This document shows positions 11,914 to 38,640 of a stretch of 64,000 nucleotides of DNA, piece by piece (the stretch's first letter is position 1; every line of letters starts with the position of its first letter). Position numbers and translations under genes: made by a program. The notes under the pieces were generated by a model, which saw only the letters and a program-made list of their open reading frames with translations, searched no databases and was not told the DNA's origin. Origin of the DNA: Gemmatimonadota bacterium (GTDB lineage: Bacteria; Gemmatimonadota; Gemmatimonadetes; Gemmatimonadales; GWC2-71-9); assembly GCA_003220935.1 (NCBI GenBank), contig QHTT01000087.1, positions 12,869 through 76,868 of the forward strand, given 5' to 3'.

Positions 11914-12701
11914 TACGCGGTCCTCAGCAGGTCGAGCAGCCAGCGATGCAGCGTCGGGTTGCCGGCGACGATGGAGCCGGGACGCAGCACGTCGTCCTCG
12001 CCCTCGAGCGTCGTCGCGACGCCGCCCGCCTCGCGAATCAGGGCGACACCGGCGGCCACGTCCCAGGGCGACAAGCTGAGCTCCCAGAACGCGTCGAGCC
12101 GACCGGCCGCTACGTCCACGAGATCGAGCGCGGCCGAGCCGGCACGCCGGATGCCGCTCGACGCTCCCATCACGCGGGAGAACTGGTCCAGGTAGCGCCG
12201 CAGCGCCGGGAGATCCTTGAACGGGAACCCGGTGCCGACGAGCGCGTGCCGGGGCTCGGTGACCCCAGAGACGTGGAGCCGCCGCTCGCCGAGCCATGCG
12301 CCGTGGCCCGTCGCCGCCCAGTACACGAGATTCCGCGCCACGTCGTGAACCACGCCCGCACCCAGCGCCCCGCCTACCAGCGCGCCGATCGACACGGCGT
12401 ACTGCGGGTAGCCGTGCAGGAAATTTGTCGTGCCGTCGAGCGGATCGACGATCCAGACGACGGCGCCGGTGCGCGCGGCGGCGGGGGACAGCTCCTCGCC
12501 GACCACGCTCGACCCCGGCACCTCGCTCATCAGCGCGCCGGCGATGAGCGCTTCCGCCGTGCGGTCGGCGTCGGTCACGAAATCGTGCCGCCCCTTTTCG
12601 GTCCAGGCGCTCGGCGCTGCGGGCACCACCCCGCGAAGGTAAGTCGCGGCACGGTCGGCGGCGCGCTTCGCCACGTCGACTAAGTCTTTGAGTTCTCGCA
12701 C
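11913..12701 (-). CDS. suhB: Inositol monophosphatase family protein
   Basis: DFVT.AD, WIVDPLDGTTNF, GSAALD, WDVAAG; GTG start at 12701 inferred. Confidence 0.88.
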   Translation of the reverse strand: MRELKDLVDVAKRAADRAATYLRGVVPAAPSAWTEKGRHDFVTDADRTAEALIAGALMSEVPGSSVVGEELSPAAARTGAVVWIVDPLDGTTNFLHGYPQYAVSIGALVGGALGAGVVHDVARNLVYWAATGHGAWLGERRLHVSGVTEPRHALVGTGFPFKDLPALRRYLDQFSRVMGASSGIRRAGSAALDLVDVAAGRLDAFWELSLSPWDVAAGVALIREAGGVATTLEGEDDVLRPGSIVAGNPTLHRWLLDLLRTA

Positions 12702-19788: not shown

Positions 19789-22142
19789 AACGGCTGCTCC
19801 GGGGCGCACTTGGCCTCATCGCCCTGCTGGGCGCGACCGGCGGCGCGACGCGGCTCTGGCTGGGCGCCGAGGTACCGCCGCTCGGCGGACGGGAACCGGT
19901 CGCCGGCTTGCGGGATTCCGTGGTAGTGCTGTGGGATTCTCTCGGCGTGCCGCACATCGCGGCCCGCGACGAGGAAGATCTTTTCACCGCGATCGGTTAC
20001 CTGCACGCCCGCGACCGGATGTGGGAGATGGACCTGCTGCGGCACGCCGCGCTCGGGCGGCTGAGCGAGCTGTTCGGCGCGCGCACCGTCGGCGCGGACC
20101 GAGCGCTGCGCACGCTCGAGCTCGGGCGGATCGCCGCCGCGCAGCTCGAGATCGCCGGCCCCGAGGGACACCGCCTCCTCGAGGCGTACGCGCACGGCGT
20201 GAACGCGTGGATCGCGCAGGGCCGGTACCGGGCGGTGGAATTCCGGATCATCCGGCATGCGGCCGAGCCCTGGCGTCCCGAACACTCGCTGGCAATCGGC
20301 AGGCTCGAGGCGTGGGACCTCCGCACCACCGGGGACGAGCTCGAGCTCGGGGACGTGGCGGCGCGGCTCGGCCCAGCCCGGGCGGCCCAGCTCGCCCCTA
20401 CGTATCCCGACACGGCACCGACGATCGTGCCACCGGGGGAGTGGCGCTCAGGGCGTGGTGTAGGGGCGGAGCATGCTGCGCCCCTAAGTTCCGCGCCAAC
20501 ACTGGCCGTAAGGACAGTGTTTCGCCGAGCCTACGCTTCAGCGTGGGGACCTTACGAGCGTGAATTCGCAGGCTTCGCCCCCGCTTCCAATGCCTGGGTC
20601 CTGGGCCCGTCCCGCACGGCCTCCCACAAGCCCATCCTCGCCAACGACCCCCATCTGACGCTGCGGGCGCCGTCCATCTGGTATCTCGTCGGCGCGCACG
20701 CACCGGGATACGAGGTCGTCGGTGCCACCATCCCGGGAATTCCGATCGTCGTCCTGGGGCACAACGCACGCCTCGGCTGGGGCTTCACTAACGCGATGGT
20801 AGACGACGTCGACTACGTTGCCGAACAGCTGAGCCCGGATTCGACGCGGTATCGAACACCCGACGGCTGGGCCCGGACGGAAGTCGTTGCGGAGACGATT
20901 CTCGTGCATGGCAGCACGCCCCTGGTCTACCGGCGCCTGCGCACCGCCGACGGCCCGGTGATCGAGCGCGCCGGACACGAGGCGGGGCCGCCACTGGCGA
21001 TGCGGTGGGTGGCGCACGATCCCACGGATGAGATCGGCGCACTACGAGCCATGGGGCGCGCGACCGATCTGCCAAGCTTCGAGGCAGCGCTCGCGGGATT
21101 TGGTTCGCCCGAGCAGAACGTCGTGTACGGCGACACCGCCGGCAACATCGCCTACTTCCTCGCGGGGCACGTACCGGTGCGACACGGCGGCGCCGGGTTC
21201 GGCGCTGCGTCTGGGTGGGCGAAGGCGGGGCGGTGGGACGGCTATCTCACGGCGGCTGAGTTGCCACGGATGGTGAACCCGGCGCAGGCCTACGTCGTCA
21301 CGGCGAACAACCGTGTCATCGGTGACGAGTATCCCTTCTACATTTCCCGGGAATGGGAACTGCCCTATCGGGCCCAACGCATCCTGGAGCTGGTCAGGCA
21401 GGATAGCGCGGCTACGACCACCTCGGTGGCGCGGGCGCAACTCGACATCGTGGACGTGTTCTGTCGGGCGATCGCGCCGCTTGCGGCTCGGGCCGCGGCG
21501 GCGACGGGACGCCCCGACCTCGCCGCCGGATTGCGCGCCTGGGATGGTGCCATGAGCCCGGAGCGCGCCGAGCCGACGCTCGTGTGGAGCTGGTACCGTG
21601 AGCTACAGCGTCTGGTCTACGACAGTGTGTCGCCCGGGTATCGGCCCGCTGAGCCGCTGCACCAATGGCTCGCTCGTGGCCGGAGCCCGTGGAACGATCT
21701 CTCGGCACTCGAGCGTCGGGCGATGGCGACGGTGCTGCCGCGGGCGGCGGGGCGGCCTTGGGGGAGCGTGCACGCAACGGTCCAGGAACACCCGCTCAGC
21801 GCGGTCCCGCTGCTGGGGCGACTGCTCAGGTTCAATGTCGGGCCGCTCGTCACTCCCGGGGGTAACTACACCGTCAATGTCGCCTCCACCGATGAGTTCG
21901 CCGCGCCGTTCGCAAGCACGTGGGGTCCATCGATGCGTCACGTGGTCGATTTCGGAGATGTGGACGGTGCCGGGGGCTTCATCCTGCCGACGGGGCAGTC
22001 GGGTTACCCGCTCTCACCGCACTATCGCGACCAGACCACGCGGTGGCTCAAGGGGCAGCTCTGGATCCTGCCGCTGGACTTGCAACGAGTGCGCAGCGTG
22101 AGCCGTCTGGTGCTCGTGCCCGACGGACGGGGAGGCCGCTGA
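19785..22142 (+). CDS. Penicillin acylase family (Ntn-hydrolase, peptidase S45)
   Basis: GVPHI, GYLHARDR, beta-chain N-terminal Ser in SNAW, LANDPHL, PTGQSG; N-terminal signal/anchor. Confidence 0.9.
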   Translation: MKRLLRGALGLIALLGATGGATRLWLGAEVPPLGGREPVAGLRDSVVVLWDSLGVPHIAARDEEDLFTAIGYLHARDRMWEMDLLRHAALGRLSELFGARTVGADRALRTLELGRIAAAQLEIAGPEGHRLLEAYAHGVNAWIAQGRYRAVEFRIIRHAAEPWRPEHSLAIGRLEAWDLRTTGDELELGDVAARLGPARAAQLAPTYPDTAPTIVPPGEWRSGRGVGAEHAAPLSSAPTLAVRTVFRRAYASAWGPYEREFAGFAPASNAWVLGPSRTASHKPILANDPHLTLRAPSIWYLVGAHAPGYEVVGATIPGIPIVVLGHNARLGWGFTNAMVDDVDYVAEQLSPDSTRYRTPDGWARTEVVAETILVHGSTPLVYRRLRTADGPVIERAGHEAGPPLAMRWVAHDPTDEIGALRAMGRATDLPSFEAALAGFGSPEQNVVYGDTAGNIAYFLAGHVPVRHGGAGFGAASGWAKAGRWDGYLTAAELPRMVNPAQAYVVTANNRVIGDEYPFYISREWELPYRAQRILELVRQDSAATTTSVARAQLDIVDVFCRAIAPLAARAAAATGRPDLAAGLRAWDGAMSPERAEPTLVWSWYRELQRLVYDSVSPGYRPAEPLHQWLARGRSPWNDLSALERRAMATVLPRAAGRPWGSVHATVQEHPLSAVPLLGRLLRFNVGPLVTPGGNYTVNVASTDEFAAPFASTWGPSMRHVVDFGDVDGAGGFILPTGQSGYPLSPHYRDQTTRWLKGQLWILPLDLQRVRSVSRLVLVPDGRGGR
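20460..20550 (+). repeat. Composite REP-like palindromic element inside the penicillin acylase CDS
   Basis: GTAGGGGCGGAGCATGCTGCGCCCCTA plus AACACTG..CAGTGTT and CCTACGCTTCAGCGTGGG hairpins; same modules, same order, as intergenic 37668-37773. Confidence 0.75.
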
Positions 22143-23143
22143 TGCTCGACGTCGCGGTGATCGGTGCGGGGCCATGCGGCCTCGCGGTGGGCGTGGCCGC
22201 GAAGCGCGCTCACCTCACGTGCTCGTTGTTCGACAAGGGACCGGTCGTCTCGAGCCTGATGCGTTATCCCCTCTACATGACCTTTTTCTCGACGCCCGAC
22301 AAGCTCGAGGTCGGTGGCGTCCCGTTCGTCACGGCCGCCGAGAAGCCGAGCCGACGGGAGGCCCTCACCTACTACCGTAAGGTGGCGGAGTACTTCGAGC
22401 TGGACGTGAGGCAATACCACGAGGTGCAAGGAGTGCGGCGGTCGCGCGAGGGGTTCGAGTTGGCCGCGCGACACCCCGGGAAGACGGAGCCCGAGACGGT
22501 ATCCGCGCGCAACGTCGTCTACGCCACTGGGTACTTCGAGTCGCCCAACCCGCTCGGTGTGCCTGGCGAGGACCTCCCCCACGTCTCGCATTTCTTCACG
22601 GAGGCCCACCCGTATTGGCAGCAGCGGGTGATCGTGGTGGGTGGGGGCAACAGCGCCGTCGAAGCAGCGCTCGAGCTGCACCGCGTCGGCGCGCGGGTCA
22701 CGCTGGTGCACTTCCTCGGCGAGTTCGACCGCGGCGTGAAGCCCTGGATCCTACCCGACGCGACGAATCGCGTGAAGGACGGAAGCATCGCCGTTCGCTG
22801 GTGTAGCCGGGTCGTGGAAATCCGGCGCTCCGAGGTGGTGATTCGCTCCGAGATGGATGCGCGGCTCGAGGCGCTGCCCGCCGATTTCGTGCTCGCCCTC
22901 ACGGGCTACCGGGCGGACCTGACGCTGCTGCGCATGATCGGCGTGGAGGTCGACGAGACGACTGGCGTCCCGCGTCATGACCGGGCCACGATGGAGACCA
23001 ACGTCGCGGGCGTCTACGTCGCCGGAGTGCTCGCGTCGGGGCTCGACGCGAACAAGATCTTCATCGAGAACGGCCGCGCCCATGGCGGGCTCATATGTGG
23101 GCACATTCAAGCAAAACCCCCCAGGGTTGCCCCTGGGGGGTGA
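22142..23143 (+). CDS. ypdA: YpdA-family FAD/NAD(P)-dependent disulfide reductase
   Basis: GAGPCG, YP.YMTFFSTPDKLE, KP.RREAL.YY, GGGNSA, IFIENGRAHG. Confidence 0.85.
   Translation: MLDVAVIGAGPCGLAVGVAAKRAHLTCSLFDKGPVVSSLMRYPLYMTFFSTPDKLEVGGVPFVTAAEKPSRREALTYYRKVAEYFELDVRQYHEVQGVRRSREGFELAARHPGKTEPETVSARNVVYATGYFESPNPLGVPGEDLPHVSHFFTEAHPYWQQRVIVVGGGNSAVEAALELHRVGARVTLVHFLGEFDRGVKPWILPDATNRVKDGSIAVRWCSRVVEIRRSEVVIRSEMDARLEALPADFVLALTGYRADLTLLRMIGVEVDETTGVPRHDRATMETNVAGVYVAGVLASGLDANKIFIENGRAHGGLICGHIQAKPPRVAPGG
23113..23141 (-). terminator. Intrinsic terminator for a minus-strand transcript
   Basis: On minus strand ACCCCCCAGGG-GCA-ACCCTGGGGGGT followed by a T run. Confidence 0.7.
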
Positions 23144-23210
23144 TCGCCTGCTCGACATCGTGCGCCCTAGAACCCGATGCGAGCGAGACGAAGCTCTTGC
23201 TCGAGGCGCC

Positions 23211-23250
23211 AAACGAAAGGCCCCGCGCTCTGTTGTCAGGACGTGGGGCC
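23211..23250 (-). terminator. Riboswitch expression-platform terminator
   Basis: On minus strand GGCCCCACG...CGCGGGGCC followed by TTTCGTTT, ~10 nt after the aptamer. Confidence 0.7.
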
Positions 23251-23260
23251 GGTGCCAACC

Positions 23261-23340
23261 TCCGGCAGCCGGGCTGTCTCGCCAACTGAGACCCCTTGGC
23301 TTTGCGCCCCGCCGTCGCCGGCGGTTTGCCCTGAACAGAG
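23261..23340 (-). ncRNA. c-di-GMP-I (GEMM) riboswitch aptamer
   Basis: Minus strand CAGGGCAAACCGCCG-GCGA-CGGCGGGGCGCAAAGCC...GGGTCTC...GAGACAGCCCGGCTGCCG: GGCAAAC, GNRA tetraloop, CGCAAAGC and terminal CUGCCG. Confidence 0.85.
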
Positions 23341-23360
23341 ATGTGCTGGCCTTGCAATGG

Positions 23361-23376
23361 GCAAGAACAGTGCCTA
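23361..23376 (-). promoter_or_regulatory. sigma54 (-24/-12) promoter driving the riboswitch
   Basis: Minus strand TAGGCACTGTTCTTGC, GG-N10-GC spacing, ~20 nt upstream of the aptamer. Confidence 0.6.
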
Positions 23377-23461
23377 AGTGTAAGTGGCATCAAGCCGTCA
23401 CTTAGCCAACACCTGCGCTCACGAGATCTTGCAGAACGCATAATTTCATGCAGAAAGCGAC

Positions 23462-24544
23462 ATGTCGCCGGTAGTCCTGGTGGCTCCGGCCGCGTTCAAG
23501 GGTACACACGGCCCGCGGCAGGTGGCTGAAGCGCTCTCGACCGGCATTCGGCGCGCCCTTCCCGAAGCGTCCTTACTCCAGTGCCCGATTTCCGACGGCG
23601 GTGATGGCCTACTCGACGCCGTGCTCGGCCCCGGGTCGCTGCGTGAGAAGGTGGCGGTGACAGGCCCGCTGGGAGCGCCGGTGAGCGCCGTACTCGGCTG
23701 GGTCGACCCGGAGACGGCGATCTTCGAGAGTGCCACGGCATGCGGCATCGCGCTGCTCCGTCCGGACGAGCTCGATCCGCTGCGTGCCACCACGCGCGGC
23801 GTCGGCGAGCTGATCTGGGAGGCGGCAGAGCGCGGCGCCCAGGTGGTGGTTGTGGGGTTGGGTGGGTCGGCCACCGTGGACGGCGGAACCGGCGCGGCGT
23901 GCGGGCTGGGTTGGACCTTCGCGGACGCCCGAGGCGAGGCGCTGCCCGAGGGGGGCGGCTCGTTGGCACAGCTCGCAGACCTGGGAGGCGGCTGGGCGCT
24001 CGCCGCCCAGGTCCTCGCACTCACGGATGTAACCACGCCGCTGGTGGGCACAGCCGGGGCGGCGCCGGTGTTCGCGCCTCAAAAAGGCGCTGGTCCGGAG
24101 AGCGTGAAGCTGCTCTCGCGCGGACTGGAGCGTCTCGCTGAGCTGATGGCGCGCCATGGCCGGCCAGAGCTCGCGACGCTGCCTGGCGGGGGCGCCGCCG
24201 GCGGGCTCGGGGCGGGTCTCGCGTTTTTCGCCAAGGCCCAACTGGTGCCGGGCGCCGAGTGGGTGCTGGGGCGCGTGGGGTTCGACGCCGCCCTCGCCAA
24301 GGCGGACTTCGTCGTGACCGGTGAGGGCGCTTTCGATCGGACGTCGCTCGCCGGCAAGGCATCGGGGGAAGTGGTCCGGCGTGCGCAAGCGGCGCAGAAA
24401 CGCGTCGCCGTTGTGGCGGGGAAGATTGAAGGCCTGATCGGCATCCACGCCCTGGACGGGGAAGGCCGCACGCTCGATGCGGCCGGGATCGCCGCGCTCG
24501 CCGAGCGCGCGACCCGGCAGGCATTTGGGTTGCCTCTGCCCTAG
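23462..24544 (+). CDS. glxK: Glycerate kinase (GlxK/GarK family)
   Basis: AP.AFKG, PISDGG.G, GLGGSATVDGG.G, FAPQKGA, GAAGGLG, VTGEG. Confidence 0.9.
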   Translation: MSPVVLVAPAAFKGTHGPRQVAEALSTGIRRALPEASLLQCPISDGGDGLLDAVLGPGSLREKVAVTGPLGAPVSAVLGWVDPETAIFESATACGIALLRPDELDPLRATTRGVGELIWEAAERGAQVVVVGLGGSATVDGGTGAACGLGWTFADARGEALPEGGGSLAQLADLGGGWALAAQVLALTDVTTPLVGTAGAAPVFAPQKGAGPESVKLLSRGLERLAELMARHGRPELATLPGGGAAGGLGAGLAFFAKAQLVPGAEWVLGRVGFDAALAKADFVVTGEGAFDRTSLAGKASGEVVRRAQAAQKRVAVVAGKIEGLIGIHALDGEGRTLDAAGIAALAERATRQAFGLPLP

Positions 24545-37794: not shown

Positions 37795-37826
37795 ATATTA
37801 GGGTCCAGCGAATATTAGGGTCCAGC
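37795..37826 (+). repeat. 15 bp direct repeat upstream of a lipoprotein gene
   Basis: ATATTAGGGTCCAGC at 37795-37809 and 37812-37826. Confidence 0.7.
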
Positions 37827-37848
37827 AAAACCACGAGAGAGGGAATAA

Positions 37849-38640
37849 ATGATCACGTTTCAGAAGCACTCGTCGCATCTTGTCGCGGTGCTGACTGCCG
37901 TGGCTTTGGCCGGGTGCGTCAAGAGTGACCAGGCGAACCAGTCGGCCGACTCGACCGCGCGTAACCTGACGCTCGCCCCGACCGAGTCGACGGCCGCGAT
38001 GAAAGACGTGCCCGCGCCGCCGACGGAGGCCGCCAAGCCGGCGCCCGAGAAAAAGACCCCCCCACCGGTGGCCAAGCCCCCGGCTCCCAAACCCGCGGCG
38101 CCGACGACGCTCACTGCTGCTGCGGGAACCCGGATGTCGCTCGCTGCGAGCGACTCGATCTCCACCCGGCAGGCGAAGGCCGGTGACGCTTTCACCGCGA
38201 CTGTGGGCCAGGACGTGAAGGACGCGGCAGGACACGTTGTGATTCCGGCGGGGTCGGCCGTACAGGGAACAATTGTCGCCGCCGAGCCGGCGCCCAATCC
38301 CAATGCGAGCGGGCAACTCAGCCTCGACGTGAAGAGCGTCAGCGTGCGCGGCACCAGTTACGCCGTGGACGCGACCGTCGAGTCGATGGACACCGTGATG
38401 AAGGGACGTGGCGTCACGAAGGCCGACGCCGCGAAGGTGGGTGGTGGGGCGGTCGCAGGGGCCCTCGTCGGCAAGCTGCTCGGCAAGAATGCGAAGGGTG
38501 CGGTGATCGGGGGCGCGGTGGGCGCCGCCGCCGGCGCCGCCGCGGCGCGGGCTTCGCGCGACATCGACATCATCCTCCCCAAGGGGGCGGCGATCACCAT
38601 CAAGCTGAACAAGCCGCTGACGGTGAAGCGGGCAGCCTGA
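37849..38640 (+). CDS. Lipoprotein with Pro-rich linker and glycine-zipper motif
   Basis: Lipobox LAGC, GDAFTATV..DV, VIPAGS, GGGAVAGALVG...GAVIGGAVGAAAG. Confidence 0.8.
   Translation: MITFQKHSSHLVAVLTAVALAGCVKSDQANQSADSTARNLTLAPTESTAAMKDVPAPPTEAAKPAPEKKTPPPVAKPPAPKPAAPTTLTAAAGTRMSLAASDSISTRQAKAGDAFTATVGQDVKDAAGHVVIPAGSAVQGTIVAAEPAPNPNASGQLSLDVKSVSVRGTSYAVDATVESMDTVMKGRGVTKADAAKVGGGAVAGALVGKLLGKNAKGAVIGGAVGAAAGAAAARASRDIDIILPKGAAITIKLNKPLTVKRAA

Follow-up and report, generated by a model that had tools for sequence, protein, structure and literature searches.

Between a ypdA-family disulfide reductase gene and a glycerate kinase gene of this Gemmatimonadota genome, a c-di-GMP-I aptamer is followed by a conserved hairpin RNA and by no conserved ORF, unlike the usual context of RF01051, in which a protein-coding gene lies downstream in cis. 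As judged from the comparison of homologous sequences, the hairpin unit is a real small-RNA family that is absent from Rfam, and it very probably represents a stand-alone small RNA. We give about even chances to the reading as a whole, namely that the unit is a self-contained small-RNA gene in which the aptamer would be an OFF switch and the hairpin loop would serve in trans as a protein decoy; the protein-decoy step is the weakest of this proposal. The features are listed in Table 1, with coordinates of the window, that is, the whole 64,000-nt stretch of DNA that was analysed.

Table 1. Features of the small-RNA unit and its two neighbouring genes
Feature	Position	Strand	Evidence
Sigma54-type –24/–12 promoter motif	23361..23376	-	Sequence; present in 78/78 non-truncated homologous loci
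c-di-GMP-I aptamer, G20 type	23261..23340	-	RF01051, 59.8 bits; G at 23330
Aptamer segment with G20, predicted antiterminator	23328..23334	-	Folding; partial covariation in relatives; pairs with 23242-23236 when ligand-free
Terminator 1, predicted expression platform (OFF switch)	23211..23250	-	Stem probability 0.00 with aptamer free, 1.00 with aptamer withheld
Spacer with degenerate copy of the anti-loop element of terminator-less relatives	23191..23210	-	Alignments; homology inferred
14-bp bulged hairpin, small-RNA core	23145..23190	-	Covariation; covariance models R1 and R2; no Rfam family
Near-invariant 14-nt loop, proposed active site	23161..23174	-	Alignments A2 and A4
Terminator 2, predicted small-RNA 3' end	23109..23141	-	Scanner; compensatory changes
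ypdA-family disulfide reductase, convergent neighbour outside the unit	22142..23143	+	TIGR04018, 407.8 bits, above cut-off; gene call
Glycerate kinase, divergent neighbour outside the unit	23462..24544	+	TIGR00045, 294.7 bits

The aptamer, its promoter and the hairpin RNA

A search with the Rfam covariance models returned a full-length match to RF01051 at 23340-23261 on the minus strand (59.8 bits, E 3.4e-9; the gathering score is 35 bits), which was the sole Rfam match at gathering level in the 64-kb window. The GEMM-I aptamer of the preliminary description, which had proposed this search, was thus confirmed. Alignment to the Rfam consensus revealed that the pocket bases G20, A47 and C92 and the GNRA loop on P2 are all present, the equivalent of G20 (model position 11) being the G at 23330. 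The role of A47 and the transfer of the Vc2 numbering onto this aptamer are presumed here. A G occupies the G20 position in all 62 aptamer-bearing loci among the 78 loci described below. In the passages of PMC6140456 that concern the ligand pocket, roles are assigned to G20 and C92, c-di-GMP is recognised by G20, cGAMP riboswitches have A at that place, and wild-type Vc2 discriminates against cGAMP. The earlier statement that this base favours c-di-GMP agrees with the rule given in those passages, and c-di-GMP is the predicted ligand of the aptamer. Two related types were considered and rejected: a cGAMP riboswitch (GEMM-Ib) requires A at position 20, where G was found at 23330, and the c-di-GMP-I-GGC variant RF03167 scored 58.9 bits against a threshold of 59, with an A where the model has G (the A47 position).

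The sigma54-type –24/–12 motif noted earlier was confirmed by inspection of the sequence at 23376-23361 on the minus strand; the motif is kept in the homologs, and an rpoN domain was detected in the genome. From the spacing to this motif, we infer that transcription starts near 23349. The motif is uncommon: a strict sigma54 pattern, on which the genome counts depend, matched 56 sites in 4.04 Mb, of which 34 are intergenic, and many strict-pattern sites precede pilin-like, P-II, dnaK or hsp20-like genes (names read from the sequence). Between the promoter and the start of the glycerate kinase gene (23400-23460 of the window), an AT-rich stretch with repeated TGCA-type words, also seen in many homologs, may be the binding place of a sigma54 activator.

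Both terminators described earlier (23211-23250 and 23113-23141) are present, the second being called by the terminator scanner and the first not. Terminator 1 consists of an imperfect stem (23250-23219) followed by a U-rich tail to 23211, and its z score was only –1.73 when it was folded alone. The stem of terminator 2 (23141-23116, 11 pairs) overlaps the last ypdA codons on the other strand. Since these codons (23114-23143 of the window) are the reverse complement of terminator 2, the tail of the ypdA protein would be shaped by the RNA of the opposite strand. The approximately 70 nt between the terminators had been described as lacking an RBS-led ORF. We likewise found no credible ORF between terminators 1 and 2, but the interval is not empty, and the conserved structured RNA within it had been missed. 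Indeed, when the interval was aligned across relatives, the sequence on either side proved less well conserved than this seemingly empty stretch.

An exact 18-nt core was found in 111 stretches of GTDB genomes, comprising 108 labelled as Gemmatimonad, one unlabelled homolog and two chance matches; 109 homologous genome stretches were retained after the chance matches were dropped. The 14-nt loop was kept in all 13 loci that were found by BLAST without a pattern, whereas its invariance is partly built in where loci came from the pattern search. In 58 sequences, 98.8% of the cells of the stem were paired, and five of the 14 pairs had changed on both sides. In 33 more diverse sequences, 96.5% were paired and eight of the 14 pairs had changed on both sides; no shuffle out of 500 reached this level, and the slid controls gave 27-47%. 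These 33 sequences had been aligned by fitting to the model, and the covariation statistics ignore kinship. Many of the stem pairs are G-U, which fixes the structure on the minus strand. Covariance model R1 detected the hairpin in 43 of 151 family genomes, representing 21 of 73 genera, and its two weakest matches sit at the expected place, beside glycerate kinase. Model R2 detected it in 19 of the 74 other family genomes of a phylum sample; outside the family, four weak matches (E 0.02-0.04) that look like terminators only were obtained among 76 genomes. Applied to 38 hand-picked family genomes, in a run that had no positive control, R2 gave nothing beyond the finds of R1 and the pattern.

An Rfam search up to E 10 over the hairpin yielded terminator-like or chance matches only and no family, and no match to the hairpin RNA was obtained in viral contigs. 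In the literature searched, we found no report of a Gemmatimonadota RNA of this kind; supplements and most subscription papers lay outside this search, and motif catalogues could hold one. The portions of PMC5473149, PMC9481103 and PMC11109978 consulted contain nothing on the hairpin RNA. Near-matches of the loop on two other contigs of the genome (C2, approximately 12200-12450; C40, approximately 37800-38050) were rejected as palindromic repeats; they belong to a GC-rich palindromic intergenic repeat family with several modules per site.

Variation among relatives and the predicted switch

We collected 80 loci with flanks and excluded one chance match and one truncated locus, which left 78 (class counts include locus L122 as reassigned). 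All 78 carry the sigma54 motif. In 22 of them the aptamer is followed by terminator 1, in 40 the aptamer is followed by a short linker without terminator 1 (two of intermediate length), and in the remaining 16 there is no aptamer and the promoter runs straight into the hairpin. The downstream neighbour is ypdA in 31, purA in 18 and an acylase gene in three of the 80 loci; in 23 of the 80, where the cassette is inverted, it is glycerate kinase, encoded on the strand of the unit. Almost every locus places the unit close to the 3' end of the purA operon. In distant genera, the aptamer, terminator 1 and the hairpin follow a sigma70-like promoter and are flanked by a putative Wzc-like gene and by purA; other distant genera have the hairpin with a decayed aptamer or with none, the decay being seen in one genus. 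Upstream of the hairpin of L211, L215, L217, L376, L377, L382 and L386, decaying aptamer remnants are visible, with the start of P2 kept and P3 gone; the same set has a separate upstream hairpin, the C-rich loop of which could pair with the G-rich loop. In each of two MAGs the unit occurs twice, in differing contexts (L085/L103 and L079/L153), which may reflect binning contamination or true paralogs.

On a glycerate-kinase tree (quick method, 79 rows, with a long-branched outgroup row), the aptamer-less class corresponds to four changes, at least two of which are forced by well-supported branches; the aptamer appears to be missing in about four lineages. Because the promoter and the hairpin stay where the aptamer is lost, we regard the hairpin as the product and the riboswitch as an optional control layer. 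A riboswitch-gated small RNA, one of the possibilities raised in the preliminary description, is thus supported by a conserved, covarying hairpin with its own promoter and terminators, the gating itself being predicted.

In the proposed mechanism, the segment with G20 would pair with the 5' arm of terminator 1 at low c-di-GMP, and read-through would give an RNA of approximately 240 nt with the hairpin and terminator 2 at its 3' end. When c-di-GMP is high, the aptamer would lock and terminator 1 would form, leaving only an aptamer RNA of approximately 140 nt. We calculated the probability of terminator 1 by folding to its end, with the aptamer withheld from folding as a proxy for bound ligand. 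At this locus, the value of 0.00 with the aptamer free (Table 1) arises because 23334-23328 pairs with 23242-23236. For 39 of the 43 long loci, the mean probability was 0.39 with the aptamer free versus 0.96 with the aptamer withheld. Covariation was weak at the variable positions 5-6 of the antiterminator, where 44 of 78 pairs were Watson-Crick compared with 30.9 after shuffling (p 0.003, kinship ignored; 39 distinct combinations from 44/45 loci), and position 7 gave no covariation signal.

In the relatives without terminator 1, the linker would pair with either the aptamer or the loop, so that a bound aptamer would leave the loop masked. Of the 52 distinct short linkers, 46 contain a complement, in two parts, of the loop and the stem top, and with the aptamer withheld, the pairing of the loop core with the linker was 0.78 in the short loci versus 0.12 for shuffled linkers. 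The short linker can also pair with the 3' strand of aptamer P2, in 26 of 52 cases better than shuffles. The long linkers were no more complementary to the loop than shuffles when simple duplex energies were compared (2 of 45 significant); 26 of 43 long linkers contain a C-run. According to these folding models, OFF logic at high c-di-GMP is likely for both linker designs. However, terminator 1 forms even with the aptamer free in 16 of the 39 long loci, and the loop of the short loci is still 0.53 masked with the aptamer free; the switch therefore rests on equilibrium models. More tentatively, and at somewhat under even chances, the unit may be a natural allosteric small RNA: in at least 40 relatives the aptamer would act on neither transcription nor translation and would instead directly hide or expose the active loop within its own RNA molecule. 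A single bacterial family would then have three wirings (terminator, masking and none) and two sigma factors for this effector RNA, in an RNA-only c-di-GMP output relay of bacteria for which neither Hfq nor CsrA was found.

We also inspected soil sequence data for transcripts of the unit. At 90% likeness, all four metatranscriptome runs (three studies) contained contigs over the unit, some of them from short-linker relatives. At 97% likeness, a contig of RNA run X15 spans 23174-23314 with no differences and a contig of RNA run X16 spans 23153-23322 with four differences, both bridging terminator 1 and both runs belonging to one study; RNA run X20 gave no contig at this level. Because RNA contigs give neither strand, ends nor level, and because DNA may occur in RNA libraries, these contigs are only consistent with read-through past terminator 1 in soil RNA. 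The missing RNA contigs over most of ypdA and glxK carry no evidential weight. Nor does the peak of summed depth over the unit represent an expression level, since the DNA run peaks there too, owing to conserved pieces that are common to many organisms.

The putative partner of the loop and alternative explanations

We propose that the hairpin loop would act in trans as a protein decoy, in the manner of EutX. A protein is slightly favoured over an mRNA as the partner, on the basis of the stem, whose length and bulge position are both conserved, of the unsuccessful search for targets and of the precedent of EutX and Rli55. However, a decoy usually copies an mRNA site, yet the loop core occurs only once in this genome, which counts against a decoy. 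Domain searches of the 85%-complete genome gave no match to Hfq (PF17209), CsrA (PF02599, for which controls matched), Ro60/TROVE (PF05731, also absent among the neighbours examined), RapZ (PF03668) or ANTAR (PF03861, for which the control was unmatched everywhere too). Since CsrA, RapZ, Ro60 and ANTAR proteins were not found, there is no candidate partner among them. Several known types of RNA were rejected: a CsrB/RsmZ-type decoy (loop without GGA; PF02599 not found), a GlmY-type RapZ decoy (PF03668 not found; no GlmY/GlmZ Rfam match up to E 10), a Y RNA (PF05731 not found) and a mimic of the tRNA anticodon arm (no 5-bp stem closing a 7-nt loop). In two tRNA-Arg species of the genome, bases 1-10 are complementary to the loop at 23161-23174 apart from a one-base bulge, at about –20 kcal/mol, an unremarkable value obtained post hoc; the loop variant of L218 complements nine tRNA-Arg bases without a bulge.

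Instead of binding a protein, the G-rich loop of the riboswitch-gated small RNA might base-pair, independently of Hfq, with C-rich sites in one or more mRNAs or in other RNAs, an explanation that we consider possible but rather unlikely. The loop would be exposed and competent for pairing, since the linker of the short class is predicted to pair with it; exact 11-nt complements are commoner in carriers (57 non-self complements in 30 genomes versus 17 in 21 others), and seeds of six to eight bases would escape the tests used. However, the best of 3516 start regions reached –27.8 kcal/mol, compared with –25.1 to –27.9 for shuffled loops (run on a third of the regions). Moreover, among 60 complement sites (54 of the 57 from carriers and six from non-carriers), no gene occurred more than three times and UAG stops were frequent, and the two candidates that were followed (a histidine kinase gene and pilC) are not conserved sites. 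The loop could also be a ribosome-binding site from which an AUG or GUG starts a tiny peptide or traps ribosomes, the short linker then being a translational platform. This idea draws on the AUG or GUG found at one fixed place, about 6 nt after AGGG, in 97 of 97 aptamer-bearing sequences; it is nevertheless very improbable, because in 78 of the 97 the reading frame meets no stop in its first 18 codons, the encoded residues vary, and three distant members have ACG, AUU or AUC at the start site. In addition, the start codon (23158) is buried in the covarying stem.

Under the c-di-GMP sponge suggested earlier, the aptamer RNA would be the main product and would store the ligand, with the hairpin merely stabilising it. 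The absence of a protein gene in cis of the aptamer, the capacity that a terminated RNA of approximately 140 nt would have to hold ligand, the 21 GGDEF matches in the genome and the precedent of the Bdellovibrio merRNA (PMC3627812, where the part concerned presents storage as an untested idea) speak for it. We nonetheless disfavour it as improbable, given that the aptamer is the part that is lost (16 of 78 loci lack it and in one genus it has decayed, with the hairpin kept) and that a stabiliser needs neither an invariant loop nor a conserved antiterminator. The constancy of the hairpin and the optional nature of the riboswitch likewise argue against an antisense regulator of ypdA, a further suggestion of the preliminary description, and a related possibility is a plus-strand 3' element of the purA-acylase-ypdA mRNA. 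Terminator 2 does overlap the end of ypdA, and the unit does lie near the 3' end of the purA operon almost everywhere; however, the overlap covers just about 10 codons, the G-U pairs work only on the minus strand, and ypdA is downstream in only 31 of 80 loci. Because the neighbours change and the cassette inverts (23 of 80), we regard antisense control of ypdA as refuted and hold such roles to be highly unlikely. Finally, the other six GEMM riboswitches of the genome each precede an ORF, which might suggest that a regulated protein gene was lost here or collapsed in assembly, as had also been considered. This is refuted, and its chance is negligible: the interval is colinear and of equal length in five relatives at 79-93% identity (1.2-kb query, full length, no insertion), no gene lies there in the homologs examined, and an independently assembled contig of a soil DNA run, possibly from the study that yielded the genome, spans 23175-23300 without insert or difference. 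The comparison of the ypdA-glxK interval in relatives that had been proposed earlier thus gave the same length and no gene between the terminators.

Relation to known RNAs and other riboswitches of the genome

In logic, the closest known system to the proposed aptamer-gated small RNA is that of EutX (Enterococcus) and Rli55 (Listeria), which the relevant part of PMC7602753 describes as small RNAs gated by a B12 riboswitch and sequestering the ANTAR protein EutV. As in that system, a 5' aptamer and a terminator stand on a non-coding RNA, and the ligand causes early termination so that the effector is not made, which is a prediction in our case. In contrast to what is described there, the ligand would be c-di-GMP rather than B12, the promoter is of the sigma54 type, one long hairpin takes the place of ANTAR elements, and in relatives predicted masking of the loop takes over from the terminator, or the riboswitch is missing altogether.

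In ligand, the closest are the merRNA of Bdellovibrio bacteriovorus and the Vc2-containing small RNAs of Vibrio cholerae. The portion of PMC3627812 concerned presents merRNA as a 445-nt RNA that was not found outside Bdellovibrio and is a proposed ligand store; it resembles our unit in that a c-di-GMP riboswitch lies within a non-coding RNA and no conserved ORF follows, whereas here it is a separate hairpin further downstream that is conserved, the aptamer being dispensable. With the Vc2-containing RNAs, as far as the section of bioRxiv 10.1101/617340 on them goes, our unit would share a small-RNA level set by a c-di-GMP-I aptamer; however, Vc2 is 3'-located there, affects stability and is also found ahead of tfoY. 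In our unit, the aptamer is located 5', a terminator is its predicted platform and no protein gene follows. Our aptamer is a member of the RF01051 riboswitches, although its predicted target of control is a non-coding RNA and not an mRNA.

Riboswitch-driven antisense RNAs that run toward a convergent gene occur in Listeria and Clostridium acetobutylicum. Our unit would likewise be a riboswitch-controlled non-coding transcript directed toward a convergent gene, but it would stop after about 10 overlapping codons, and the convergent gene is not conserved. GlmY is a sigma54-transcribed decoy RNA for RapZ that is not known to have a riboswitch. A sigma54-type promoter, a structured small RNA and a decoy role (proposed here) are common to both, whereas our unit has no Rfam match to its hairpin, no RapZ was found and a riboswitch is present.

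Few riboswitch-gated small RNAs are known, and the present unit adds a c-di-GMP case with a structured RNA outside Rfam that spans about 20 genera of one soil-dwelling Gemmatimonadales family, in more than 100 genomes. Its natural variants, with a terminator, a masking linker or no aptamer, are built-in controls. If the OFF prediction is true, the unit would be a rare instance of direct second-messenger control of a regulatory RNA; if direct masking is true, it would be a natural ligand-gated regulatory RNA, of which no description was found in the literature searched. The identity of the loop partner would expose post-transcriptional control in a phylum for which such control has hardly been studied.

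Of the other six GEMM riboswitches of this genome, five (L001, L003, L004, L006 and L007, on contigs C53, C124 and C136) have an A at the G20 position as aligned by eye, and the ORFs behind them encode secreted proteins of Ig-like or fibronectin-III type or a 53-aa lipoprotein-like product. These A-type, that is, cGAMP-type, riboswitches suggest cGAMP signalling in Gemmatimonadales. The only other G20-type riboswitch (L005:1501-2100, on C124) lies upstream of a gene for a type IV pilin-like protein (N_methyl, weak GspH), and two pilin-like genes elsewhere in the genome carry sigma54 motifs; pili may share both regulators, the G20-type riboswitch and sigma54, with the small RNA.
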